The notes under the pieces were generated by a model. The model searched no databases, had not been told where the DNA came from, and was given only the letters and a program-made list of their open reading frames with translations. The translations under genes and the position numbers were made by a program. Positions 2,639-62,089 of a DNA stretch of 64,000 bases are shown in pieces; position 1 is the stretch's first letter, and every line of letters begins with the position of its first letter. The DNA comes from Minisyncoccota bacterium (GTDB taxonomy: Bacteria > Patescibacteriota > Minisyncoccia > Phycocordibacterales > XYD1-FULL-46-19). The stretch is from the NCBI GenBank assembly GCA_041663165.1, contig JBAZRF010000005.1, forward strand, positions 502 to 64,501, read 5' to 3'.

Positions 2639-4996
2639 ATGGCCAAAAAACAAAAAATTGCGCGAAAAATCATCAAAAAGGTCAAATCCGAGAAGAAAGT
2701 TTCTCTCACGGTTAAACAGATTCAAAAACGTGATGGGGTGAGAGTGCCTTATGATGAACAAAAGATCGTGAGCGCGATTGGCAAGGCGATGAAAGCGGCC
2801 GGCGAGGGGGGTTTGGCCGATGCCGAAAGGGTAGCTCGCTCGGTTCAGGCGGAGCTATTGCGCATTTGTTTGGCCAAGGGGGCTAAGACGAGCTCTGACT
2901 GTGTTCCCGCCGTCGAAGATATTCAGGATGTGGTAGAAAAACAACTTATTTTTCATCAATTTGCCACTACGGCCAAAAGCTACATTCTCTATCGCGAAAA
3001 ACGAACCGAGTTACGGCGCGAACGAGGCGAAGTCCCCACCAAGGTCCGTGAATTGGCCGCTGAAAGTAAAAAATATTTTCAAAACGATTTATCTGAATTT
3101 ATATATTATCGTTCTTACTCGCGTTGGATCGACGAGGAGAATCGTCGCGAAACCTGGGTAGAATCGGTTGACCGTTACCTCTCTTTCATGAAAGAGAACT
3201 TGGGCAATAAACTTAAGGAAACCGAATATGAGGAGTTGCGAGCAGCGATGCTCGCTCAAAGAGTGATGCCCTCGATGCGTCTAATGTGGAGTGCTGGGGC
3301 GGCGGCTCGGCGGACCAACGTTACCGGCTATAATTGCACCTATATGGCTCCAACTTCTTTTCAGGATTTGGCGGAAATTATGTATCTATCGATGTCGGGT
3401 TGTGGTGTTGGTTTTTCGGTTGAGAGTCAGACGGCTCAACAATTCCCAATCATTCAGCGGCAGAATGGTAAAATAAGAAAAACTCACGTTGTTGATGATA
3501 GTCGCGAAGGTTGGTGTGATGCCTTGGTTATTGGTTTGAAGACGTGGTTTGGCGGCGAGGACATTGAATTTGATTATTCACAATTACGACCAGCTGGCGC
3601 ACGCCTTAAAACAATGGGTGGGCGATCTTCGGGACCCGAACCCCTTATTGCTTTGATGCAATTTACCCGTAGCAAGATTCTCAGCCGTCAAAGCAAGCGT
3701 TTACGCAATATCGATTTACACGATATTATTTGCAAAATCGGAGAAGTCGTTGTCTCTGGTGGTGTGCGCCGAACGGCGATGATTTCATTGTCTGATCTCG
3801 ACGATTATGAAATTCAGCATGCCAAGGATGGTCAGTTTTATATGACCGAACCACAACGCGGTTTGGCTAATAATTCGGCCGTTTTTAACGAAAAACCATC
3901 TTCGGCCGAATTTTTGTCAGAATGGATTTCGCTGATGAAAAGCGGTTCGGGCGAGCGAGGAATTTTTAACCGCGGTTCGTTGCAAAAACAATTGCCGAAG
4001 CGCCGTTGGGAAAAATTTGAAAAAGACGCCCCGACTTGTGGCATGAATCCATGCGGCGAAATTGTACTCAAGTCCAAACAATTTTGTAATTTAACTGAAG
4101 TGGTGGCGCGGGCCGGCGATACCGAACAAGACTTGCTCGATAAAGCCCGTCTGGCAGCAATTTTAGGCACTTATCAAGCTAGCCTAACCCATTTCCCTTA
4201 TCTCTCGGAAGAGTGCAAAGAAAATTGTGAAGAGGAGGCTCTGCTGGGCGTTTCGATTACTGGCCAATGGGACTGTAAAACTGTGCGCAATCCGGAAATT
4301 ATGCGCAAAATGAAAGACGAGGCTGTCCGGGTTAACAAAGAATATGCTAAGCGCTTTGGCGTTAATCGAGCAACCGCCGTGACCTGTGTTAAACCTTCTG
4401 GCACTGTCTCTCAGCTCGTTGATTCGTCCTCGGGTATGCACCCGCGACATTCTCGTTATTATGTCCGGCGTATTCGCATTTCAGCCACGGACGCGCTTTT
4501 CAAGATGATGAAAGATCAGGGCTGTACCTATTATCCAGAAGTTGGCCAGACCATGGATAGTGCTAACACCTTTGTTCTTGAATTTCCAGTTAAAGCGCCT
4601 GAAAATTCTATCTATAAGGATGATCAAACCGCGATTGAACAATTAGAGTATTGGAAGATGGTTAAAGAGAATTATACTGAACATAATCCATCGGTGACAA
4701 TCTCAATCGGCGAAGATGAATGGGTCGCGGTGGCTGATTGGCTCTATAAAAATTGGGATATTATCGGCGGCCTTTCCTTCCTGCCGCGCTCGAATCATGT
4801 TTATAAATTAGCGCCTTATGAAGAGGTTGCTAAGGAGCGTTATGATGAGATGGTTAAGAATTTCCCAGAACTCGATTTTTCGAAGATCGTACTCTATGAA
4901 CAAGACGATCAAACTCAGGGTTCGAAAGAATTGGCCTGTTCATCGGGTGTCTGTGAAATCGATATGGCACCGACAAGCGAAAAAGAGAAGAAATAG
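2639..4996 (+). CDS. nrdJ: Class II (adenosylcobalamin-dependent, monomeric NrdJ/RTPR-type) ribonucleotide reductase with an N-terminal ATP-cone.
   Basis: An ATP-cone is visible at 'VKQIQKRDGVRVPYDEQKIVSAIGKAMKAAG'. The protein is 785 aa with a C-terminal CxxxxC pair ('CSSGVCEI'), as in L. leichmannii RTPR. It has no NrdD glycyl-radical/Zn-ribbon tail. Confidence 0.55.
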   Translation: MAKKQKIARKIIKKVKSEKKVSLTVKQIQKRDGVRVPYDEQKIVSAIGKAMKAAGEGGLADAERVARSVQAELLRICLAKGAKTSSDCVPAVEDIQDVVEKQLIFHQFATTAKSYILYREKRTELRRERGEVPTKVRELAAESKKYFQNDLSEFIYYRSYSRWIDEENRRETWVESVDRYLSFMKENLGNKLKETEYEELRAAMLAQRVMPSMRLMWSAGAAARRTNVTGYNCTYMAPTSFQDLAEIMYLSMSGCGVGFSVESQTAQQFPIIQRQNGKIRKTHVVDDSREGWCDALVIGLKTWFGGEDIEFDYSQLRPAGARLKTMGGRSSGPEPLIALMQFTRSKILSRQSKRLRNIDLHDIICKIGEVVVSGGVRRTAMISLSDLDDYEIQHAKDGQFYMTEPQRGLANNSAVFNEKPSSAEFLSEWISLMKSGSGERGIFNRGSLQKQLPKRRWEKFEKDAPTCGMNPCGEIVLKSKQFCNLTEVVARAGDTEQDLLDKARLAAILGTYQASLTHFPYLSEECKENCEEEALLGVSITGQWDCKTVRNPEIMRKMKDEAVRVNKEYAKRFGVNRATAVTCVKPSGTVSQLVDSSSGMHPRHSRYYVRRIRISATDALFKMMKDQGCTYYPEVGQTMDSANTFVLEFPVKAPENSIYKDDQTAIEQLEYWKMVKENYTEHNPSVTISIGEDEWVAVADWLYKNWDIIGGLSFLPRSNHVYKLAPYEEVAKERYDEMVKNFPELDFSKIVLYEQDDQTQGSKELACSSGVCEIDMAPTSEKEKK

Positions 4997-25719: not shown

Positions 25720-25756
25720 CTCCCTATTATAAAATGAATAGGAAAAAAAGTCTCTG

Positions 25757-25843
25757 CGGAGGCGGGAGGATTCGAACCCCCGATGCCCTTTCAGGCATAC
25801 ATGTTTTCGAAACATGCGCGTTCAACCACTCTGCCACGCCTCC
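25757..25843 (-). tRNA. tRNA-Ser (anticodon CGA), with a long variable arm.
   Basis: The reverse complement 'GGAGGCGTGGCAGAGTGGTTGAACGCGCATGTTTCGAAAACATGTATGCCTGAAAGGGCATCGGGGGTTCGAATCCTCCCGCCTCCG' has anticodon loop TTCGAAA and the variable stem-loop tatgcc-tgaaa-gggcat. Confidence 0.75.
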
Positions 25844-25933
25844 TTTCGACAAACCAAATCCTAACATTTTCTTGGCAACTTTTCAAAAAAATGATATATT
25901 GCTGGCGTCAAGTTCGGGTTCTAAAAATTTATT

Positions 25934-26005
25934 GGCCCCATCGTCTAATGGTTAGGACATCACCCTTTCACGGTGGTAATCCGGGTTCGACTCCCGGTGG
26001 GGTCA
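25934..26005 (+). tRNA. tRNA-Glu (anticodon TTC).
   Basis: 'GGCCCCATCGTCTAATGGTTAGGACATCACCCTTTCACGGTGGTAATCCGGGTTCGACTCCCGGTGGGGTCA' closely resembles bacterial tRNA-Glu(UUC). Confidence 0.8.
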
Positions 26006-26027
26006 CAAAATTCATACAATTTTAATG

Positions 26028-26060
26028 TTTATCCAGTGCTTATCCACAGGGTTATCCTTG
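26028..26060. promoter_or_regulatory. Array of three DnaA-box-like 9-mers at about 11-bp spacing (TTTATCCAG, TTATCCACA [a perfect consensus match], TTATCCTTG), directly upstream of a DnaA-like gene.
   Basis: 'tttatccagtgcttatccacagggttatccttgg' was read directly. TTATCCACA at 26040-26048 equals the E. coli DnaA-box consensus. Confidence 0.55.
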
Positions 26061-26169
26061 GTTTGGGGCTTTGATTTGACCACCATTGTGACAAAATGTA
26101 AGAGGAGAAGACCGGTGTGCGGTCTTCCTGTTCGTTGAAAGACGACAGCGTAAGCGAAACAAATATGAG

Positions 26170-27819
26170 GTGTTGATCATGGAGACCGATGCTAAGACGG
26201 TTGGTGGCGCCGATGCCACTATCGGTCTGGCTCCGGTCCAGGTCGATCATCTCGCGATTGTTCGAAGTGAGTTCAGCCGGAAAATGCACGAGCGGGTCAG
26301 AACCAATCTTGGCGATCAATCGTATGATCTCTGGATTGTCAGCGGGGGAGTAACGTTCAGTTTTTACGAGGATCAACTCTCAGAAAGACTGGCTGGAGTC
26401 GTCTATACGGCGAGTTCCTTTGCTTCTGGCTGGCTCGGTGACCCCAAAAAGGTTTATCTAGCCGCTATAACCACTGCGTTCAGAGAGCAAGAAATCTTCC
26501 ACTGGAAGTGCGTGGAGGATGGGGCACTCTGTGAAGTGGCCAAGAAAGAAGTTCTGCCGGTAAGACAGTGTTTACCGAATCTTGAGGCCGAGAAGCCCGA
26601 GCCGGTAGTAAGTAACAAGAAGGTGCCGAAGTTCTGCCCTGGCAGGCCACCTGTTATCGGAGTTAGTTTCGAAGACTTTGTCCCCGAAACCTCGGCTAAC
26701 AAAATGGCGCTGGAGGCAGCCCAGGAGCTTACCAAGAGCCGAAAAGCAGCTAGGTTTACCAGCGCGATTTTTCACGGACCTAGCGAGTCCGGAAAGAAAC
26801 ACCTGGTTCTCTCGACTCTTCGGGCGATGTTGGAGGCTTATCCAAGACTGGATGTCTTCTACTTGGATGGAGACGGGTTCGGTACCCTGTTCCCGAGTTT
26901 CTTCTGGACAGGAAAGGGTGGCCAAACTCAAGCCAACGACGCGGATCTCAAGATCTTCAAGGACCGTCTCTACGCCGCCCAAGTTCTCGTTATCCCCGAC
27001 CTTGACCTTGTTGGCCTTAGGCATGACGGGAGCAAGAGACAAATGGCTCGGGCCATAAATCTGGTTCGCCAGAATGGAGGCCGAGTCCTGATCTCTCTGC
27101 TCCAGCCGCTGCCGGAAAGTGAGGCTGAGGGTATCGACCTGTTTGGACCAGAGCTCTACCGGGTGATAAAAGAGATAAGAAATTTCCGAATGGAAAGAAT
27201 TTCTCGGGAATCTTATCCCCTAGTTGCCCAAGCGTTTCTGGCTAAGCAGTTCATCTCGGCTAAAACACCGGGAGAGAGGGCAATTGTCGATTGGATAGTG
27301 AGGAGGACAAAAAGCCTCACTGTGCTAAAGAATCGACTTGAAACCCTTGTTGAAGAGCATAACAGGAGGGCGACGGATGGCCGCCGTGTCACCCTGCCGG
27401 AGGTGCAAGAACTGTTCAAGTTCCCGCCAAACGCCGACGATCTCATTGCCCTAGTACTGGAGGTCGGGAAACTTCAGCGGAAGGTCCGTCGTGGCGAGGT
27501 CGAATATAAGCGAGTTTTAGATATCGCTTGCTACCTTGCTTCTGAAGTTGTCGGTCTCGACCGGGAGAAGGTTGCTCAGTGGTTCTATCCGGACACCATC
27601 TGGGCAAGTTGCGATGTCAGCGGTGGCCTAATGCGTATCGAGAAGCTTCTGGAGACCTCAGAGGCCCGCTTTCCTCTCGGCATTTTGGCAAGAGAACTCT
27701 TGCGCCGGTTCTCCGTTCCTGAAGGGAAAAGAGAATTCTGGGCCAGCAGGCTAAAGGAGTGGACTCTCTCTGAGTCGGGCAAGAGCAAGGGTCGTCGTCG
27801 CTGTCGAGACAAGTTTTAG
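26170..27819 (+). CDS. Divergent DnaA-like AAA+ protein (DnaA domain III and IV homolog with a non-canonical Walker A, GKK, and an unrelated N-terminal domain of about 170 aa), located in a high-GC island.
   Basis: 'SFEDFVPETSANKMALEAAQEL...FHGPSESGKKHLVLS' parallels DnaA 'TFDNFVxGxSNxLAxAAA...LFLYGGxGLGKTHLL'. 'VLVIPDLDLV' is Walker B. 'KRQMARAINLVRQNGGRVLISLLQPLPE' parallels DnaA 'KERTQEEFFHTFNAL...QIVLTSDRPP'. The C-terminal 'KRVLDIACYLASEVVGLDREKVAQWF...SGGLMRIEKLLE' parallels the DnaA domain IV HTH. Confidence 0.55.
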   Translation: MLIMETDAKTVGGADATIGLAPVQVDHLAIVRSEFSRKMHERVRTNLGDQSYDLWIVSGGVTFSFYEDQLSERLAGVVYTASSFASGWLGDPKKVYLAAITTAFREQEIFHWKCVEDGALCEVAKKEVLPVRQCLPNLEAEKPEPVVSNKKVPKFCPGRPPVIGVSFEDFVPETSANKMALEAAQELTKSRKAARFTSAIFHGPSESGKKHLVLSTLRAMLEAYPRLDVFYLDGDGFGTLFPSFFWTGKGGQTQANDADLKIFKDRLYAAQVLVIPDLDLVGLRHDGSKRQMARAINLVRQNGGRVLISLLQPLPESEAEGIDLFGPELYRVIKEIRNFRMERISRESYPLVAQAFLAKQFISAKTPGERAIVDWIVRRTKSLTVLKNRLETLVEEHNRRATDGRRVTLPEVQELFKFPPNADDLIALVLEVGKLQRKVRRGEVEYKRVLDIACYLASEVVGLDREKVAQWFYPDTIWASCDVSGGLMRIEKLLETSEARFPLGILARELLRRFSVPEGKREFWASRLKEWTLSESGKSKGRRRCRDKF

Positions 27820-27958
27820 TCAGGGCCCCCGGAGTACACTGTCCGCGGGCCCTTTCGCATTTTTATAATTTTTAGAAATAAAAGTTTCCCCAAACCAAAA
27901 GCCCCTTGTCGGGGCTTTTGGGCCTACTGCTTACCACTAATCAACGTGCCTTTAGCAA

Positions 27959-28900
27959 TTACATGGCCGGCGTGGTAAACGAGTAGGTCGTGGAGGTAGC
28001 TGTTCCTCCTCCGGCGTTGGTCGAGGTCACGACATAATAATAAGTCGTGTTGGGGATTAGACCGGATAAGGTTCCCAGATGGAAGAAGGCCGGCACCACG
28101 TCACTGGCCGCTGGAGTTCCGGCCGTGCTAACCGGTGTTGTGGTTGAGAGCCACAATTTCCCATCAGCTAACTGGTCGGTAACGAGAATCACTATCGCGC
28201 TGGTACTAGACACGTTGAAAGCGCTAGTGAAGAGGATGGCTGGTGGCGGGGAAATTACCGGCGGGGTACTTGTTCCGGTAGCCGTAGTGGTAAACGATAC
28301 AACCGAGGATGTTGCCGTTTTGTCGGCACTGCTTGCTCGAACGGTCAGATAATAGGTGGTACTAGGGATGAGACCGGTCAAGGCCAAACTATGAGTAGTT
28401 GTTGTGGCGGTCGGGTCAATTATCACCGTCCCTCCGTTCGTGGCCAACTGAGTGGTGGTGCCAAACATCACGTTGCCGGTTGTTGGTAAATTGGTTAACC
28501 AACTGATACTGGCCGAGGTCGAGGCGACGGAAGAGAAATTGATACTAGAGATTGACAAGATCGCCTGACCACCGCCATGTTCAGCTTCATTTTCGTGTTC
28601 ATCTTCTCTCTCTCCGTATCCGGTTTGTTCGTTTTGATTCTTGCCGTGATCGTCATCGTCTTCTTTCTTGCTACCAGAGTTGTCACTATTCTGATTTTGC
28701 TGACCATGATCATCTTGGGTTGCCGGTGTGGCCACTACTTGATGTTGATCTTGTCTTCTTTCGGCTTGATCTCTTCCAGACGGCTCTCGGCCACCGCCAT
28801 CCTCGGCGAGAGCCAAAGCGCCAGGCACGGCGAGCACCAACGCTAAAGCGATCGAGAAAGGGACGAGTTTACTATGCCATTTAATCAATAATCTTTTCAT
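27959..28900 (-). CDS. Secreted protein with an acidic/His-rich linker and two FN3/PKD-like beta-sandwich repeats (high GC).
   Basis: A signal peptide is at 'MKRLLIKWHSKLVPFSIALALVLAVPGALA'. The 'GLIP(S/N)TTYY' repeat occurs twice, which is typical of FN3-like domains. Regional GC is about 57%. Confidence 0.4.
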   Translation of the reverse strand: MKRLLIKWHSKLVPFSIALALVLAVPGALALAEDGGGREPSGRDQAERRQDQHQVVATPATQDDHGQQNQNSDNSGSKKEDDDDHGKNQNEQTGYGEREDEHENEAEHGGGQAILSISSINFSSVASTSASISWLTNLPTTGNVMFGTTTQLATNGGTVIIDPTATTTTHSLALTGLIPSTTYYLTVRASSADKTATSSVVSFTTTATGTSTPPVISPPPAILFTSAFNVSSTSAIVILVTDQLADGKLWLSTTTPVSTAGTPAASDVVPAFFHLGTLSGLIPNTTYYYVVTSTNAGGGTATSTTYSFTTPAM

Positions 28901-29061
28901 AAGATTTTTTAAGTTAAGTTAATCGACTAAACATCAATGGCGACTAATTTACTCAACTAGCGACGACCAGAGACTCATTTGGCGGGGATTTATTGGCTTT
29001 TCCGCCAACGGCCCGCTAGGTAGGTTGTAGGTTTATAACTACGATTTGGTCCCAAATTCTG

Positions 29062-29883
29062 GTGCAAAGCCCGGATGTTTGTTATAGTTTTCTTATGATA
29101 ATTTGGATTGCGCTAGCCACTTTTTGCTCAACACTTTTGGGCGGACTTTTTGCTTTGCGGTTTCGGGATAAGTTGCACTTGATTCTCGGCTTCTCGGCCG
29201 GGGCGGTGATTGGCGTCGCTTTTTTTGATTTATTGCCCGAAGCGATTAATTTGGGGCAAGGACTTTATGATGTTTCTTTTGTTACTGGCATTGTCGCACT
29301 CGGTTTTATTGTCTACATGACTCTTGACCGTTTGATTTTATTTCATCCGCCGGCCGACGAGGATTGTCTCGACTGTCATAACGAGCACCACCAATTAGGA
29401 AGTTGGCCCCAAGGCCTTTGGCGGGGTAAACTAGGCGCTGGCACCTTGGCCGTGCACAGTTTTCTCGACGGCTTGGCAATTGGCCTGGCCTTCCAAGTTT
29501 CATCGGCCGTCGGCGTGATTGTGGCGGTCGCGGTTTTAACTCATGATTTTTCTGACGGCATTAACACGGTTGGTTTGATTTTAAAAACCGGGCACTCTGC
29601 GGTGCCCGGCCAGACCGATCCAGACAAGAAACGCCAAGCGTTTAGCTGGCTTTTGATAGATGCCATTGCGCCGGTGCTGGGTGTTTTGGCCACTTTATTT
29701 TTTACTCTCTCCGAAACTTCCCTCGGCCTCATCCTGGCCGTTTTTTGCGGCTTCTTCCTCTATATCGGCGCCTCCGAATTGCTCCCTGAGAGTCATCACG
29801 GCCACTCCACGCGCTTGACTACCCTAATGACGATTCTCGGCGCCTTGGTGCTATATCTGGCGGTTAAACTGGCCGGGGTCTAA
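29062..29883 (+). CDS. zupT: ZIP-family zinc/metal transporter (ZupT-like).
   Basis: 'HNEHHQ', 'HSFLDGLAIGLAF', 'HDFSDG' and 'HHGHS' are ZIP signature His/Asp-rich TM motifs. Confidence 0.75.
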   Translation: MQSPDVCYSFLMIIWIALATFCSTLLGGLFALRFRDKLHLILGFSAGAVIGVAFFDLLPEAINLGQGLYDVSFVTGIVALGFIVYMTLDRLILFHPPADEDCLDCHNEHHQLGSWPQGLWRGKLGAGTLAVHSFLDGLAIGLAFQVSSAVGVIVAVAVLTHDFSDGINTVGLILKTGHSAVPGQTDPDKKRQAFSWLLIDAIAPVLGVLATLFFTLSETSLGLILAVFCGFFLYIGASELLPESHHGHSTRLTTLMTILGALVLYLAVKLAGV

Positions 29884-29884
29884 A

Positions 29885-30832
29885 TTATTTCCTCTGCAAA
29901 AAGTTATAGATATCTTCAACGGCGTTGGCGGCATCGCCGGCGGCGATATTGTTTTGACGATAGAGAACATCGGTGCAGTCGCCGGCTGACCAGATTCCTT
30001 CTTGCGAGGTGGTCTGGCGAAGGTGGTCAACAACGATTTCACCTCTTTCATTTAATTTAACGATGTCTTTAAAAATAGCGGTATTGGCGACAAAACCAAT
30101 CTCAACAAAAATACCGGTCACGGGCAATTCAATCGGCTCACCGGTGGCTAAACCTTGTTCATCTTTGTTTTTGTAAACTAAACTTTTGACAAATCCGCCA
30201 GCTGGCGGAGCGCCTTTAATCTCAACCAGCTCAACATTTTTAAATGCTTTGAATTTTGGGTTTTGCAAAAGTTTGTCAATCGTGATTTGTTCGGCACGAA
30301 AGGCGGGCATGGTTTCAAGTAGGGTGACACTATTGCAATAAGCAAGGAGTTGGCCAGCCGAATTGAAACCGGCATTACCGCCGCCAATCACCGCCACATC
30401 TTGACCAGAGAAGATTGGGCCATCGCAGGAGGCGCAGTAAGTAACGCCTTTTTGTTCGAAAACGTCAGCGCCCGGCACGGTTAATTTTCGTCTGACAGCG
30501 CCGGCGGTAATAAGGACAGTTTTAGCTTTGTATTCGTCTTTGTCAGTTTTTACCACAAAGCCGTTGCTTTCCTTGGTCAGCCCGGTTACTTGCTCGGGAA
30601 CCTTAATTGTTAAATCGGGTCCTTCATAAGAACGCAAATGTAGCTCAAGTTTTTTGGCCAGGTCAATGCCGGAGATATTTTGCTCGCCGATCCAATTTTG
30701 AATTTCGGGTGAGACCGAAGATTGGCCGGCTAATTCTTGAGCGATAAGTAAAGTTTTTAATTTTTTTCTAGCAGCATAAACGCCCGCCGATACGCCGGCT
30801 GGTCCGCCACCAATAATGATTAGGTCGTACAT
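29885..30832 (-). CDS. trxB: Thioredoxin-disulfide reductase; start trimmed to 'MYDLIIIGGGPAG'.
   Basis: The FAD motif 'IIIGGGPAG', the redox-active 'CASCDG', and 'GQDVAVIGGGNAG' (NADPH site) are present. Confidence 0.8.
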   Translation of the reverse strand: MYDLIIIGGGPAGVSAGVYAARKKLKTLLIAQELAGQSSVSPEIQNWIGEQNISGIDLAKKLELHLRSYEGPDLTIKVPEQVTGLTKESNGFVVKTDKDEYKAKTVLITAGAVRRKLTVPGADVFEQKGVTYCASCDGPIFSGQDVAVIGGGNAGFNSAGQLLAYCNSVTLLETMPAFRAEQITIDKLLQNPKFKAFKNVELVEIKGAPPAGGFVKSLVYKNKDEQGLATGEPIELPVTGIFVEIGFVANTAIFKDIVKLNERGEIVVDHLRQTTSQEGIWSAGDCTDVLYRQNNIAAGDAANAVEDIYNFLQRK

Positions 30833-39989: not shown

Positions 39990-40030
39990 TTGCTGATGAC
40001 TTACTGATTTTAACTTGCTATAATTTTTTT

Positions 40031-40684
40031 GTGGATAAAATAATCGGTTCATTCGTCGAAGAACTTAAAAAAAGACCAGACGTTATTGGTATTATTCTTT
40101 TTGGCTCTTGGGCCAGGGGAAACAATCGGCCGGATAGTGACATCGATCTAATGGTTATTACCATTGAGGAGTTTAGGAGGACCGTTGAATATAAAGATAA
40201 TCGAGCTTTTGAAATTACTTATACGACAGAAAAATCAGCGATGGACTATTGGGAGAGTCACAAAAATGATTGTGCTGGATTGTGGGAAGTGGCAAAAATT
40301 CTCTACGATAAGGACGGAACGATAAAAAAGCTCGAAGAGTTTGCTCAAGGGATTATAAAAAAAGGGAAAAACCCGTTGGATGAAATAAAGATAGGTCATC
40401 TTAAATTTGACGCCAAGGACAGTTTAGAGGCGGTTAAGGCTCTTGCTAAAACCGAACCAGTCCTAGCTAATTTTTTATTAACGAACAAAATCTTTTGGCT
40501 GACTGAATTATTTTTTGATATCCGCCAATTGTGGGTACCGGCTCCTAAACAGAGGTTCGACAAAATAAAAGAAATTGACAAAGAGTTTTTCGATCTTCTA
40601 ACTCAGTTTTATCAAGACGGCATTGCTCTTACTGAGAAAATAAAAATTGCTGAAAAGACCATACCGATAGTTTTTAAAAGTTAG
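40031..40684 (+). CDS. Nucleotidyltransferase-domain protein (minimal Pol-beta-type NTase fused to a C-terminal helical domain; KNTase/Lnu-like architecture).
   Basis: 'GIILFGSWARGNNRPDSDIDLMVI' carries the GS...DxD NTase motif. The protein is 217 aa. Confidence 0.5.
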   Translation: MDKIIGSFVEELKKRPDVIGIILFGSWARGNNRPDSDIDLMVITIEEFRRTVEYKDNRAFEITYTTEKSAMDYWESHKNDCAGLWEVAKILYDKDGTIKKLEEFAQGIIKKGKNPLDEIKIGHLKFDAKDSLEAVKALAKTEPVLANFLLTNKIFWLTELFFDIRQLWVPAPKQRFDKIKEIDKEFFDLLTQFYQDGIALTEKIKIAEKTIPIVFKS

Positions 40685-48851: not shown

Positions 48852-49100
48852 ATGAAATTGCTCGACAATATTAAGGCCTTTGTGGTTGATCCGGTCATTC
48901 TTTTGCTCTTTGGTTTGGCGCTTGTCATTTTCCTTTACGGTTTGGTTATGTTTTTATGGCAAGGCGATACGGTTAAGAATTCGACCGAGGGACGCGATAA
49001 AATTATCTGGGGTCTGGTCGGGATGGCAGTTATGGCTTCGGTTTACGGCTTCTTGGAGGTCATTTCTAAAACCATTGATCAACTGATGACAGGAGTTTAA
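48852..49100 (+). CDS. Pilin-like small membrane protein, paralog 6 (no cleavable signal peptide).
   Basis: TM1 'VILLLFGLALVIFLYGLVMFL', the loop 'WQGDTVKNSTEGRDK', and TM2. Confidence 0.35.
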   Translation: MKLLDNIKAFVVDPVILLLFGLALVIFLYGLVMFLWQGDTVKNSTEGRDKIIWGLVGMAVMASVYGFLEVISKTIDQLMTGV

Positions 49101-49180
49101 TATTTTAAAGAGTAAAGAAAAGTGCCACACCTCCTTGCGGGGGTGTGGCACTTGGTTTTTGTCAAACGCTTCTCCTTTCT

Positions 49181-49759
49181 CTACTTTGTTTTCCACCGCC
49201 AGGTCACATATAGCGGTGGTTCACCTTTGTTCACCTTGAAGTAAACGGGTTCTCCTGGGTCCAGCGTCACGCTGTCCCCGTCGCCAACCGAATGCCACTC
49301 TCCACCGCCACTCTTTATCAAGAAGCGGCGGCCGTGTTCCGCACCCGGAGCTAGGCGGTGGTCGCCTTCAATCGCTCCGTTTTCCCAGGCGATCGGTACT
49401 ACTTCGTCGGTGAGACGAAGGGTTCGCCACTCGCCCCAGCTAGCCTCTTTCGCCGCCGGGCAAGTCTTAGTGCTGCTACACACAGACGCGATATAGCAGA
49501 GCCCATATACGAAGATTACCGCCAACGCCAGAATCATGAACATCCCGTCTCGTGGCAGTGGGGCCTTGGCCTTAGGCTTCTTCTCGGCCGTGGCCGCCGC
49601 TTCCTTGGTGTCGGTCTTCTTTTCTGCCCCTTTCTCTTTGGCCTTCGACACCTTTTCCTTGTTTGTCCTTCTGGCTTGGCATAGCGCCAGAACGACGAAG
49701 ATGGTTGACGGTATCGTTACCACGGAAAGGATTGCTCCTATTGTCCACCACATTGTCAT
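49181..49759 (-). CDS. NfeD-like membrane protein (C-terminal beta-rich/OB-like domain); putative partner of the upstream SPFH protein. High GC.
   Basis: An N-terminal TM, a Lys/Ala-rich linker and a second TM are followed by the C-terminal 'GEWHSVGDGDSVTLDPGEPVYFKVNKGEPPLYV'. The protein lies immediately downstream of an SPFH gene. Confidence 0.35.
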   Translation of the reverse strand: MTMWWTIGAILSVVTIPSTIFVVLALCQARRTNKEKVSKAKEKGAEKKTDTKEAAATAEKKPKAKAPLPRDGMFMILALAVIFVYGLCYIASVCSSTKTCPAAKEASWGEWRTLRLTDEVVPIAWENGAIEGDHRLAPGAEHGRRFLIKSGGGEWHSVGDGDSVTLDPGEPVYFKVNKGEPPLYVTWRWKTK

Positions 49760-49768
49760 ACTCCTTTC

Positions 49769-50839
49769 TTACTTCTTATTGCTAGGGTCAATGTTGAGGA
49801 GAATGCCGCCCGTGTTCTCTGCAACCATATTGATTGTCGCCGGCGGCTGTTTTTCGAGCATATCAAGCACGTTCTGTGACCTGTAGATGGCCTCTGCCGC
49901 TCGCCACGAAACTACCCGTCCCTTGCGAACGACGGTAACACCGTCGGCCGCAAAAACTGGCTTGGCAGCTTCATCAATGATCGCCAAGATCGCGAGGGCA
50001 TGTCCTCTTCCCTTGGCTTGATGGCCCAGGGCTTCTTTCTCGGCACTAAGGACACCTTCGCGGTCTTTCTTCACACTCTCCGGCAGAGCAATCCGTTTGA
50101 GGGTGATCCCGCTCTCCGGACACAGGCGAACGCCGATGTTTGCCAATGCCTGCAAGAAGGTTCGATCCCATAATACTTTTTGCGAGATCTCGCCTGTCTT
50201 GAGCGCCGCGTCATCAACGTTGTAACCCTGAATGATTCGCCGGACCGCTTCTATTGCCAGACTCTTTATCCGGGCCGGTGTATCCTCAACCACGTAGACG
50301 AACAGGTAGCAGGGGTCATCGTGGCCCCGGCTTGGTGCCCCAGTTATTTTGTCGGGGGTCGGGGTGCCGGTGACGGTGGTGGGGATTTCGATCTCTGCCC
50401 TATCGCTGTCGATGACTTGGGCGACGATTTTGAATTCCGGCGTTCCACTACTGCCCCCAAGAAAGACGACTTCGCCTCCCATGTCAGCAGCCGTGACCTC
50501 GATAATGACTTGTTCGAAGGTCCCGTCTTCTCCGCCGTGTGGGGCAAACTTGTCGATCAGTCCCGGTAGACAGAGAATGTGCCAGCCGCCCCTTAGTGTC
50601 AGGTGATAGGTGCCGAGCCGCTCAACGACCCGGAAGTCCTTCTCGGTTACGAATGTCAGCCCTACTCCCGCGTAGATGGCAAACCAGGATAAGAGCCCGG
50701 TCAAACCAAATACGACAGACAACTTCCCAGCTCCTAAGAGCCAGGTCAGGACAATGGTCCCTAAGCCACAAACCGCTCCGCCACCAAGGATCACCACCCA
50801 GGCCAACAACTGCATCTGCCATTTCTTCATCGCGTCCAT
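49769..50839 (-). CDS. SPFH/band-7 (stomatin/prohibitin/HflKC-like) domain membrane protein (high GC).
   Basis: N-terminal TM segments are followed by 'FRVVERLGTYHLTLRGGWHILCLPGLID', an SPFH-domain start, and a long helical tail 'SVKKDREGVLSAEKEALGHQAKGRG'. GC is about 58%. Confidence 0.55.
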   Translation of the reverse strand: MDAMKKWQMQLLAWVVILGGGAVCGLGTIVLTWLLGAGKLSVVFGLTGLLSWFAIYAGVGLTFVTEKDFRVVERLGTYHLTLRGGWHILCLPGLIDKFAPHGGEDGTFEQVIIEVTAADMGGEVVFLGGSSGTPEFKIVAQVIDSDRAEIEIPTTVTGTPTPDKITGAPSRGHDDPCYLFVYVVEDTPARIKSLAIEAVRRIIQGYNVDDAALKTGEISQKVLWDRTFLQALANIGVRLCPESGITLKRIALPESVKKDREGVLSAEKEALGHQAKGRGHALAILAIIDEAAKPVFAADGVTVVRKGRVVSWRAAEAIYRSQNVLDMLEKQPPATINMVAENTGGILLNIDPSNKK

Positions 50840-51041
50840 CCTTCCTAGTTCAGAGTCACACCCTTCTTGAGGGGGACATTAGCTTAACGAAATTGACAAA
50901 AACCTATACAGTCACGAAACGAGGGAACATCCCTGTTTCGATTGTTCAGTGTATCTGCTATTGATTATACACTATATCATACAAGAAGTCAAGGGGTAAA
51001 AGTCCTTGTCTGGCAAGGCTTTTTGAGCGCTTTAATTCTGT

Positions 51042-59990: not shown

Positions 59991-60048
59991 TTATGTTTTA
60001 CTTTGTATTGCCGGGAGGGACTTTTTAAGCTAATATTTAGGAGTTATT

Positions 60049-60135
60049 GCGTAGGTGGCGGAGTGGTCAATCGCAACTGACTGTAAATCAGTCGCCCATT
60101 GGGCTACGGAGGTTCGAATCCTCCCCTGCGCACCA
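60049..60135 (+). tRNA. tRNA-Tyr (anticodon GTA), with a long variable arm; CCA encoded.
   Basis: 'GCGTAGGTGGCGGAGTGGTCAATCGCAACTGACTGTAAATCAGTCGCCCATTGGGCTACGGAGGTTCGAATCCTCCCCTGCGCACCA' has anticodon loop CTGTAAA. Confidence 0.8.
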
Positions 60136-60251
60136 AAATATAATACTTGACATATTGTCAAGTTTAGTATATACTCAACAACAGGTCTAAGTATGGGCAA
60201 TTTCGCCTATTTTTTGTTGTTTTTTGGCATAAGGAAAGAAAGGAGGTTCTC

Positions 60252-60527
60252 GTGAAGAACCTGGTTATCGTAGTTTTGGTTATATTGGTGTCGGCGTTGG
60301 TACTAGCTCTCGGGTGGACTTCATGTCCACTTCGTGTGCCAGTGCCAGCGGTGACGGTGCCAACAGTGTTGACGGCGGCTCCGATTTCCATTGGCGAAAA
60401 ACCGGTCTCCGGACCGGTAGCAGTAACGACTAAGGCGCCTGTCGCGCCAGAGTCGGAAACGGATCGAGTGCTCAAGGAGTTGGGCTTCCGTCCGTCGAAT
60501 CAACTCAGCAAGATCACAGTGAAGTAA
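60252..60527 (+). CDS. Small secreted hypothetical protein (high GC).
   Basis: A signal peptide 'MKNLVIVVLVILVSALVLALG'; the protein is Pro/Val/Thr-rich and 91 aa. Confidence 0.3.
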   Translation: MKNLVIVVLVILVSALVLALGWTSCPLRVPVPAVTVPTVLTAAPISIGEKPVSGPVAVTTKAPVAPESETDRVLKELGFRPSNQLSKITVK

Positions 60528-60547
60528 ACAGCGAGGAGAAGACCGAA

Positions 60548-61693
60548 ATGAAGAAGACAGTGGTGTTGGGTGTGGCGATGTTTGCGTTGTTGTTGTGCGG
60601 TGTGGGTTGGGCTCAGACGAGCACGGTTCCGACGGAATCGACGGCTGTTACGCCCGTGGTGGCCAGTTCGGGGAACAGCGAGGCGATTGCCCGCGCGTTC
60701 CTGTCGAAGGATGTGACCAGTTATTACGGCTGGCTCAACTTCTTGCGCGTGTCCGTCGCGGGCGGTTCGCAATGGGTGTCGGGGAGTTTCGAGATGACGA
60801 AAGACGGCTGGATAAGCAGTCTCGTCATTGATGGAACAATCGTGCCCTTGCCCGACGGCGAACCGTTTGCCGGGTTGCCGATTAACCAGGCCGGAAGCGC
60901 GACACAATTCAGCGTTAGCTTGAGCGGCGTGGATGCCGGAGGCCGGTACGTGGTCAACGGCAGTTTCTACACGTCTCTGCTGTCACCGGGCGATCCCATC
61001 GTGATTGTCTTGCATCCAAACAACGAGGACCGGTTCATCCCGTACACCGTTCCGGCGGGGGTTGATCCGAGTAATCTGCGGATCCGGACGCAAGACGGAA
61101 ACATTTGGACCTACGATTCGACACGTGATGGATTTGATCTGTGGGTTGACCCGGCCTATCCCAGTATGACGTACGAGATTTTCGACGTTTCAACTGGGGC
61201 GATCTACTCACGCGGGGTGATCGATGACAACGGCATCGACGGTTCGGCTGGCGAGAACATCATCAGCACGACCTATGCGGGTGTCTCGGCCATGTTGATG
61301 GATCCCCTGAAGTTCTGGGACAATATCCAGTCGACGACGCTCGACAACTCGGTCGAGCGCGACGGCAGGTTTGTGCCGGCCAAGGTCGTCATGGCTCGGG
61401 CCTATGGCCAAGCGATAACGATCCAAGTAAACGATCTCCCTGGCGATGGGCTTGTTGAAGTTCGGGCCTGGACGCCGTTCGGGCAGGAGATGCCCGTCAT
61501 CTCCTCAACTCTTGCCGTGTATGTGGCTCCCGAGGACGGTGGCCGAGGCAAGGCCTATGCTGGAGGCGGTTACTATTACGCCAACCTCAATACGCCGGTA
61601 GGCTATGATCGCCTGGTGATTACTATTACCGGCACGGCCGATGGACAGCCCTTCGACGTCTACCTCTCACGGGGTGGCGGCGGCAAGGGCTGA
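60548..61693 (+). CDS. Secreted hypothetical protein (high GC, about 58%).
   Basis: A signal peptide 'MKKTVVLGVAMFALLLCGVGWA'; the protein is 381 aa with no recognisable catalytic motif. Confidence 0.35.
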   Translation: MKKTVVLGVAMFALLLCGVGWAQTSTVPTESTAVTPVVASSGNSEAIARAFLSKDVTSYYGWLNFLRVSVAGGSQWVSGSFEMTKDGWISSLVIDGTIVPLPDGEPFAGLPINQAGSATQFSVSLSGVDAGGRYVVNGSFYTSLLSPGDPIVIVLHPNNEDRFIPYTVPAGVDPSNLRIRTQDGNIWTYDSTRDGFDLWVDPAYPSMTYEIFDVSTGAIYSRGVIDDNGIDGSAGENIISTTYAGVSAMLMDPLKFWDNIQSTTLDNSVERDGRFVPAKVVMARAYGQAITIQVNDLPGDGLVEVRAWTPFGQEMPVISSTLAVYVAPEDGGRGKAYAGGGYYYANLNTPVGYDRLVITITGTADGQPFDVYLSRGGGGKG

Positions 61694-61736
61694 TCACCCT
61701 GAACGATCGAGTAGTTAACTTCCTTCAACCTTAACC

Positions 61737-61776
61737 CAACCCGTGGCGCGTTTCGTGCCGCGGGTTGCTTTTTTTA
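61737..61776 (+). terminator. Rho-independent terminator (GC-rich hairpin 'acccgtggcgcg...cgcgggt' followed by a T8 run).
   Basis: 'aacccgtggcgcgtttcgtgccgcgggttgcttttttta' was read directly, downstream of the 60548..61693 ORF. Confidence 0.5.
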
Positions 61777-61836
61777 TAAAAATCAGTTATATTTACAGGG
61801 CTAAACCCCTCGACAAGCTCGGGGCAAGTAAAAGTT

Positions 61837-61995
61837 ATGTCGCAAGATTTCTTAATCAAATTGGCTTGCAAGAACTGCAAGCGCATCAATTACTGGAGCC
61901 GAAAAAACCGCAAGAAGGTTGAACGCAAAATCGACCTCAAGAAATATTGTCGTTGGTGCAAAAAGCATACCCAGCACGTCGAAGTCAAAAAATAG
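61837..61995 (+). CDS. rpmG: 50S ribosomal protein L33. It is 52 aa and so below the 60-aa cutoff of the ORF track.
   Basis: The translation 'MSQDFLIKLACKNCKRINYWSRKNRKKVERKIDLKKYCRWCKKHTQHVEVKK' matches the L33 pattern 'C..C....Y.T.KN......LEL.KYC..C.KHT.H.E.K'. Confidence 0.7.
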   Translation: MSQDFLIKLACKNCKRINYWSRKNRKKVERKIDLKKYCRWCKKHTQHVEVKK

Positions 61996-62089
61996 GACGG
62001 GTTTTGGCCCGTCTGGGCGCCAAGAAGAGCATTGTTACTTGGTTTGTTACCGGGCTTTTTTTGTGTATAATTTATTTGTCAGAAGGTCT

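Follow-up and report, generated by a model that had tools for sequence, protein, structure and literature searches.

Within the 64,000-nt stretch of the Minisyncoccota bacterium contig JBAZRF010000005.1 analyzed here (hereafter the window), positions 26,028 to 26,060 hold an array of three DnaA-box-like sites, which lies between a tRNA-Glu gene and a gene for a divergent paralogue of the replication initiator DnaA. Our analysis showed that this array is real and non-random. Judging by its sequence, it is a degenerate copy of a triple-box module that is typical of replication origins: one box is intact, and the other two are half-boxes. The array most probably serves local regulation rather than being an origin or part of a mobile element. 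As to how it works, we tentatively favor, at somewhat short of an even chance, binding by a canonical DnaA whose gene lies elsewhere in the genome and which thereby tunes the expression of the paralogue.

The array reads tTTATCCAGtgcTTATCCACAgggTTATCCTTg, exactly as quoted in the preliminary description of this DNA, and the hexamer TTATCC starts within it at 26,029, 26,040, and 26,052, each time on the plus strand. When compared with the DnaA-box consensus 9-mer TTATCCACA (TTATNCACA), box 2 is perfect and box 1 has two mismatches, as the earlier count of one perfect box and two near-matches implies, but “near-match” is generous for box 3, which has three. The boxes follow each other head-to-tail and in helical phase, with start-to-start spacings of 11 and 12 bp that agree with the intervals of 11-12 bp given before. 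A same-strand TTATCC triple of this kind occurs only once in the 64-kb window, did not arise in 200 shuffles that preserved its dinucleotides, and has an analytic expectation, based on the background hexamer frequency, of 1.8e-4 per window. Triples of any hexamer at 9-13 bp spacing are not rare (about 0.2 sites per shuffle), and the significance of the array therefore depends on its motif being the pre-specified DnaA-box core. The 9-mer TTATCCACA alone is also not enriched, with 17 window matches at one mismatch or fewer versus 12.9 expected. Because single 9-mers are unenriched and triples of arbitrary hexamers are not rare, the signal lies in the phased repetition of the DnaA-box core; a box density above chance, which the preliminary description had made a condition of its reading, holds for the phased triple and not for the single box. 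An independent Logan assembly is 100% identical to the window over positions 25,975-29,963, array included. The window contains a second perfect TTATCCACA at 40,030-40,038 on the minus strand, where it abuts the start of an open reading frame (ORF) with a nucleotidyltransferase domain (40,031-40,684); this is a lone box and is compatible with chance.

We scanned public metagenome contigs for the pattern TTATCC-N5-TTATCCACA-N3-TTATCC, which has 21 specified bases, and found this spacing architecture in at least 120 contigs, a number that we judge, as opposed to compute, to be far above chance. Canonical dnaA is present at 23 of the 120 listed loci and within ~20-730 bp of the array at 21 of them; in these dnaA-linked loci the array sits 3' of dnaA, with dnaN on its other side. 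Thirty arrays among the matches listed have at least 2 kb of sequence on both sides, and dnaA lies within 1 kb of ten of these. As dnaA is close to many of the arrays, we consider the module, a head-to-tail triple of 9+2+9+3+9 nucleotides, to be a genuine DnaA assembly site that is widespread and characteristic of origins. The commonest spacers among the matches listed are GG and GGG, and the second spacer in the window is also GGG. Further listed arrays are found elsewhere on chromosomes or on contigs that resemble phages or plasmids. The neighbors of some (L061, L103, L110, L093, L106, and L097) resemble, by eye only, phage terminase/lysozyme or plasmid Rep proteins, and L106 and L097 are among the loci with at least seven perfect boxes in tandem, spaced alternately by 11 and 12 bp. 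No member of the paralogue family was found beside any other array among the matches listed.

Compared with these arrays, the copy in the window is worn. Of the 117 distinct arrays among the matches listed, 109 have a complete box 1 and 107 a complete box 3, whereas both flanking boxes of the window have lost positions 7-9. This loss is one ground for a serious rival to regulation by DnaA, namely that the array is a decaying relic or neutral by-product at which any binding of DnaA has no selected function. The array would then descend from a once-complete triple-box module, or from a short local duplication of an 11-bp unit, TGYTTATCCA, in a rearranged tRNA-gene junction, and would now be drifting. 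Units 1 and 2 have TGnTTATCCA in common, which fits such a history, as do the absence of the array from all readable orthologue leaders, the box density below that needed for stable binding, and the lineage-specific nature of the junction, whose tRNA pair is inverted in a related locus. It is difficult to reconcile with drift, however, that the three TTATCC cores, their phasing, and the GGG spacer are intact while the surrounding intergenic DNA has fully diverged between relatives, and Tandem Repeats Finder did not call a repeat at the array. We also count against a relic that the low-affinity, DnaA-ATP-specific sites of the E. coli oriC are weak boxes placed beside strong ones with gaps of 2-3 bp. 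Overall, we consider a relic to be somewhat unlikely, while regulation by DnaA remains the explanation that we prefer.

The preliminary description had also proposed that the array serves an integrated or extrachromosomal element as its replication origin or iteron, and a related possibility is a chromosomal oriC for which the divergent DnaA-like protein is the real initiator. There are some features that would agree with an origin: arrays of the same architecture occur in dnaA-dnaN intergenic regions as well as on contigs of phage- or plasmid-like character, the array adjoins a DnaA-family gene and a tRNA, the GC content rises locally, and neither dnaN nor a canonical dnaA is encoded in the 64-kb window. 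Cumulative G-C, however, has its minimum at ~2.0 kb and its maximum at ~62.5 kb (393, 379, and 520 at 20, 26, and 32 kb, respectively), and rises between these points; around 26 kb it is flat and has no extremum, such that the skew switch that had been proposed as a check is not seen there. A search for further boxes and an AT-rich unwinding element, likewise proposed, returned no additional box with one mismatch or fewer within 150 bp on either side of the array, which leaves one good box, and no extended AT-rich element beside the boxes, where the sole AT-rich stretch is the ~22-bp spacer after the tRNA. There are also no runs of two or more DnaA-trio-type trinucleotides beside the boxes, the array is missing from orthologous loci, and the Walker A, Walker B, and arginine-finger motifs that origin melting needs are degenerate in the DnaA-like protein.

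The evidence for a mobile element is similarly negative. No k-mer of 12 nt or longer from tRNA-Glu and its flank recurs in the window as an att repeat would, and no integrase or recombinase domain was found among the neighboring ORFs scanned with Pfam, which encode the DnaA-like protein, fn3/PAP_N, Zip, TrxB, FtsZ, FtsA, TspO, and an HTH protein and, further upstream, HTH_20, a methyltransferase, and an MFS transporter. The DnaA-like protein has no relatives in PHROGs, GenBank phages, or IMG/VR viral contigs, and none among PLSDB plasmids, where there was just a weak AAA+ match to a canonical dnaA. Patchy presence at non-homologous sites was not seen; the gene occupies the same position in the loci L002, L003/L004, and L007. 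The window also carries ordinary chromosomal genes, namely those for RNR, MurJ, LepA, a ValRS-type synthetase, TsaD, FtsZ, FtsA, HisRS, signal peptidase, Pth, S1, GyrA, IF-2, and ClpB, together with 13 tRNAs and RNase P RNA, and an Rfam scan of the window reported tRNAs and RNase P RNA only. This synteny, the skew profile, the lack of an unwinding element, DnaA-trios, and att repeats, and the absence of mobile relatives together exclude an origin as well as an island, and we conclude that the site neither acts as a replication origin nor belongs to a mobile element. We rate any form of origin as highly improbable.

The gene downstream of the array encodes a 546-residue protein (P0001) that is a full-length DnaA homologue of the DnaA/Hda AAA+ clade. 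Its similarity to DnaA domains III and IV, noticed earlier from the letters alone, is supported by Pfam, Foldseek, and hhalign, and it extends to domain I. Pfam detects Bac_DnaA (PF00308) at residues 163-306 with 34.7 bits against a cut-off of 23, while the domain IV model PF08299 gives no match; the NCBIfam models for DnaA (TIGR00362) and Hda (TIGR03420) score 29.8 and 17.2 bits against cut-offs of 343.9 and 194.8. When the family was aligned with canonical DnaAs using hhalign, the match spanned 424 columns from domain I through IV (99.8%, E 5.9e-29), and individual members of the family have weak DnaA_N and Bac_DnaA_C matches (for P0005, Bac_DnaA_C at E 1e-5). An AlphaFold2 model of P0001 has a mean predicted local distance difference test (pLDDT) score of 70.7, and its best Foldseek matches in the PDB are DnaA III-IV structures (8btg, 1l8q, and 2hcb). 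The family is also small. When 1.84 billion representatives were scanned exhaustively with HMMER, just five related clusters emerged, at 27-46% identity, which makes six clusters at 50% identity in all; canonical DnaAs come next with E ~1e-4. When the single sequence or the family profile was used in word-indexed protein searches, the query alone came back, a PDB sequence search with the product had no match, and a genome-contig scan with a four-sequence alignment returned just two contigs that were known already. The locus context of one distant canonical match, P0015, is not that of the candidate phyla radiation (CPR) and is uninformative.

The motifs on which DnaA depends are degenerate throughout this family. 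In Walker A (GxxGxGKT), GKT is replaced by GK followed by K, S, R, K, K, or G in the six members, the first Asp of the Walker B DD is replaced by P, T, T, V, A, or E, and the invariant Arg at the box VII position (the arginine finger) is absent from the family alignment. We therefore find it probable from these motifs that the paralogue is an ATPase-dead DnaA-like regulator rather than an initiator. The residues that read the box have changed as well. DnaA contacts the bases of its box through R399, P423, D433, H434, T435, and H439 (PMC2533591), a set that P0001 does not carry as a whole. The positions P423, D433, H434, T435, and H439 are conserved neither within the family nor with DnaA; in P0001, hhalign places A, S, C, and G at the positions of E. 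coli D433, H434, T435, and H439, and the DHSTV signature, which varies across the family, aligns to ASCDV. We infer that the paralogue probably does not recognize TTATCCACA in the way that canonical DnaA does. The three closest family members, P0001 (residues ~530-546), P0002, and P0003, also have a basic, Cys-containing C-terminal tail past domain IV (KGRRRC, KNRRRC, and KKRCRERC), and more distant members are without it.

These substitutions bear directly on a further explanation, autoregulation, in which the paralogue would use its divergent domain IV to bind the three boxes and would control its own promoter. The preliminary description had named an autoregulated DnaA-paralog promoter as its other option, and the anatomy that this implies is present, in that a promoter-like stretch begins 10 bp past the array and precedes a gene for a DnaA homologue; the “auto” part is doubtful, as the residues that read TTATCCACA are lost and four orthologous loci do not have the array. 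In favor of autoregulation, it is classical for canonical dnaA genes (PMC2533591), the boxes immediately precede the promoter region of the paralogue itself, the DnaA-like fold of domain IV is retained, with a loop rich in Arg ahead of the AxYLA helix in P0001-P0003, and the weak Bac_DnaA_C score of P0005 points the same way. Under autoregulation, however, the orthologues would be expected to carry boxes, and none does, while the upstream element that they do conserve is a hairpin or palindrome (26,107-26,127) that is a better candidate for a family operator. We consider autoregulation quite unlikely. Because the contact residues are replaced in P0001, the reader of the boxes would more likely be canonical DnaA than the paralogue.

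The place of the gene on the chromosome is informative about its history. Its setting (TspO and tRNAs, the gene, in some cases Zip, then trxB-ftsZ-ftsA) is kept in four other CPR loci; the contig of the window is itself part of a CPR genome bin, assigned to Candidatus Paceibacterota. In L002 the order is TspO, tRNA-Glu, tRNA-Ser, the gene, Zip, and TrxB; in L007 (Candidatus Vogelbacteria) it is the gene, DUF378, Zip, and TrxB; and in L003/L004 the gene is followed by TrxB, FtsZ, FtsA, and YbeY and then by HisRS, LepB, Pth, and S1, which is the downstream order of the window. This arrangement indicates that the gene is chromosomal and vertically inherited. The cassette between the gene and trxB (27,959-29,883 in the window) is variable, with fn3/purple-acid-phosphatase-N and ZIP in the window, ZIP only in L002, DUF378 and ZIP in L007, and nothing in L003. 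The composition of the region is also unusual. The preliminary description gave its GC content as about 56% against about 40% for the backbone; we measured 51.1% for the block 26,007-29,883 and 53.3% for the gene against 43-46% in the flanks, a contrast that is real but smaller. The gene has a GC content at third codon positions (GC3) of 0.58, compared with 0.45-0.51 in neighboring genes. In every orthologous locus the DnaA-like gene is 7-10 GC points above its surroundings, and because it is GC-rich in all of them, the GC step characterizes the family and does not mark a recent import. The Logan contig that matches the window covers exactly this GC-rich block (25,975-29,963). Two further GC-rich patches (53-54%) are found at 49,001-51,000 and 60,001-62,000; they contain ORFs without a Pfam family (49,181-49,759 and 60,548-61,693) and one with a weak Band_7 match (49,769-50,839).

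On its upstream side the locus is less stable. The tRNA-Ser/tRNA-Glu pair of the window (25,756-26,006) is inverted in L002 (2560-3092), which makes the DNA just upstream of the gene promoter a rearrangement junction, and the array, with tRNA-Glu on one side and the conserved promoter region on the other, falls in this junction, which is specific to the lineage. A GIY-YIG endonuclease ORF (2618-2866) is found between the two tRNAs of L002. The adjacency to tRNA-Glu reported before is correct, and no terminator was found between the tRNA and box 1. In an alignment of five leaders, the region of the array is not conserved, and the stretch that follows it is; the conserved elements comprise a putative -35 region of TTGA type and a putative extended -10, which reads TGnCAAAAT, TGnTAGAAT, or TGnCAGAAT (26,089-26,097 in the window). 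The promoter-like stretch can be read in two ways: as TTGATT (26,071-26,076), a 15-nt spacer with TGa, and CAAAAT (26,092-26,097) as an extended -10, or as TTGACC (26,076-26,081), 17 nt, and TAAGAG (26,099-26,104). The features of this junction, and the coordinates of the orthologous genes, are given in the following table.

Table. Features around the box array in the window, and the DnaA-like genes of the orthologous loci whose GC content was compared with that of their neighbors.
Feature	Position	Strand	Remarks
tRNA-Ser(cga)	25756..25843	-	Divergent partner of tRNA-Glu; pair inverted in orthologous locus L002
tRNA-Glu(ttc)	25934..26006	+	3' end 22 bp upstream of box 1
DnaA-box-like site 1	26029..26037	+	TTATCCAGT; 2 mismatches to TTATCCACA; TTATCC half retained
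DnaA box 2	26040..26048	+	Perfect consensus TTATCCACA; 2 bp after box 1
DnaA-box-like site 3	26052..26060	+	TTATCCTTG; 3 mismatches; TTATCC half retained; 3 bp (GGG) after box 2
Promoter-like stretch	26071..26104	+	Assigned from conservation in the orthologues' leaders; begins 10 bp past the end of the array
Hairpin GAAGACCG-gtgtg-CGGTCTTC	26107..26127	+	8 bp; predicted 5' end of the leader; kept in orthologues
Ribosome-binding site GAGGTG	26167..26172	+	6 nt before ATG 26179
Gene for the 546-aa divergent DnaA paralogue (P0001)	26179..27819	+	DnaA-like domains I, III, and IV; degenerate motifs
DnaA-like gene, L002	3255-4958		GC compared with neighbors
DnaA-like gene, L003	202-1806		GC compared with neighbors
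DnaA-like gene, L007	341-1987		GC compared with neighbors
DnaA-like gene, L005	1805-3412		GC compared with neighbors

The hairpin downstream of the promoter-like stretch has the conserved motif GTGYGGTCTTT and, across four sequences, compensatory changes in three of its eight pairs; its counterparts are at ~127-147 in L003, ~277-297 in L007, and ~3196-3216 in L002, and in each of these three loci a TTGACA-like element follows it. We considered that it might be a mere terminator of tRNA-Glu and rejected this, as it is kept in orthologues that have no tRNA in the readable 200-340 bp upstream. Because it is present even there, we regard it as part of the gene's own leader, in which it could act as an operator specific to the family or as a 5' stem-loop that stabilizes the mRNA. 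The gene itself most likely starts at ATG 26,179, 118 bp after box 3, a start that is favored because the N-termini of the orthologues match and because a ribosome-binding site is placed 6 nt upstream. The distance of 110 bp given previously holds for an in-frame GTG at 26,170, which sits within GAGGTG. The tetramer GATC is found directly before the start codon in the window (TTGATCATG, 26,175-26,181), in L002 (TCGATCATG, ~3248-3257), and in L003 (GATCGATCGATG, ~193-204), and in L007 the corresponding region (TCGATTATG) does not have it exactly. Two minus-strand candidates at the junction were set aside. An ORF at 26,029-26,376 was treated as an artefact, as its stop codon is the TTA of box 1 and it is antisense to the conserved DnaA-like gene, and a promoter-like match at 26,046-26,019 would fire antisense into tRNA-Glu.

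Clusters of DnaA boxes at promoters are an established means of gene regulation. In B. subtilis, the promoter-proximal clusters of dnaA, sda, ywlC, and yydA are sites at which DnaA works as a transcription factor (PMC2533591), and a cluster of this kind regulates gidA in P. aeruginosa (PMC13438810). The array in the window resembles these in that its boxes are intergenic and just upstream of a promoter, and it differs in that its target is a DnaA paralogue and that regulation here is a matter of inference. Another point of reference is datA of E. coli, whose boxes closely follow a tRNA operon; transcription from the tRNA promoter reads through across them and is attenuated when DnaA binds there (PMC10950094). 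Like datA, the boxes in the window immediately follow a tRNA gene; datA has more boxes than the window array and an essential IHF site, of which none came to light here, where no search was aimed at one, and it promotes the hydrolysis of DnaA-bound ATP. With the oriC-type arrays between dnaA and dnaN, the window array shares the motif, its orientation, the phasing (9-mer, 2 bp, 9-mer, 3 bp, 9-mer), and the preferred GGG spacer. It differs from them in having a single intact box without extra boxes nearby, an unwinding element, dnaN, or a skew switch, and in lying 5' of a paralogue rather than 3' of dnaA.

If canonical DnaA does regulate the paralogue, it would be encoded on another contig and would nucleate on the central box 2, and at high DnaA-ATP it could spread cooperatively onto the weak boxes 1 and 3. 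DnaA bound there would sit ~10-40 bp upstream of the -35 region, where it might modulate transcription of the paralogue, block read-through from tRNA-Glu, or both, and expression of the paralogue would thereby be coupled to the status of the initiator. Several observations weigh against this explanation. That this genome encodes a canonical DnaA is assumed. Just one of the three boxes has one mismatch or fewer, whereas stable binding of DnaA in vivo in B. subtilis involves about four or more clustered boxes at this level (PMC2533591), and the known stable regulatory clusters have about four to eight. Counted within 150 bp on either side, the window has one such box compared with a median of five and a minimum of two among the matches listed, which makes it the poorest array by this measure among them. 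A consensus promoter scan did not call the promoter-like stretch, which is assigned purely from conservation. Finally, no box with two mismatches or fewer was found upstream of the gene in the four readable orthologue leaders (L002, L003/L004, L007, and L005), and because these orthologues keep the promoter-like stretch and the hairpin without boxes, the array is not part of the conserved regulation of the family.

DnaA-box clusters at promoters and DnaA paralogues are each of an already known kind. Second full-length copies of DnaA are known, for example chlamydial DnaA2, and the window gene is like other DnaA paralogues in being encoded away from dnaN. Hda, the regulatory inactivator of DnaA, lacks domains I and IV, whereas the window protein keeps DnaA-like domains I, III, and IV. 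What is new is the combination of a weakened origin-type triple box placed before a full-length, motif-degenerate DnaA paralogue, and also that the paralogue family is tiny, syntenic with division genes, and compositionally odd. The literature that we searched on DnaA in Patescibacteria and on DnaA paralogues holds nothing about such a protein, and as far as these searches show, the family is undescribed. A more far-reaching proposal, which we put forward with low confidence and think unlikely as a whole, is that this is an undescribed, catalytically degenerate family of full-length DnaA paralogues, held beside trxB-ftsZ-ftsA in a narrow clade of Paceibacteria, that links initiation to division or to tRNA transcription, and whose promoter is wired in this genome to the true initiator through a weakened triple box in a datA-like arrangement of tRNA, boxes, and gene.

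Replication control is nearly unstudied in the CPR/Patescibacteria, with their tiny genomes and epibiotic lifestyle. If canonical DnaA does act through the array, this would provide a concrete cis-site for DnaA as a transcription factor in these bacteria, together with a candidate trans-acting, ATPase-dead DnaA-like regulator that is conserved beside division genes. If the array is a relic instead, it would be an ordinary fragment of a DnaA-box cluster that has survived by chance beside a lineage-specific paralogue. In either case, there is no need to retain the interpretations as an origin or an island.

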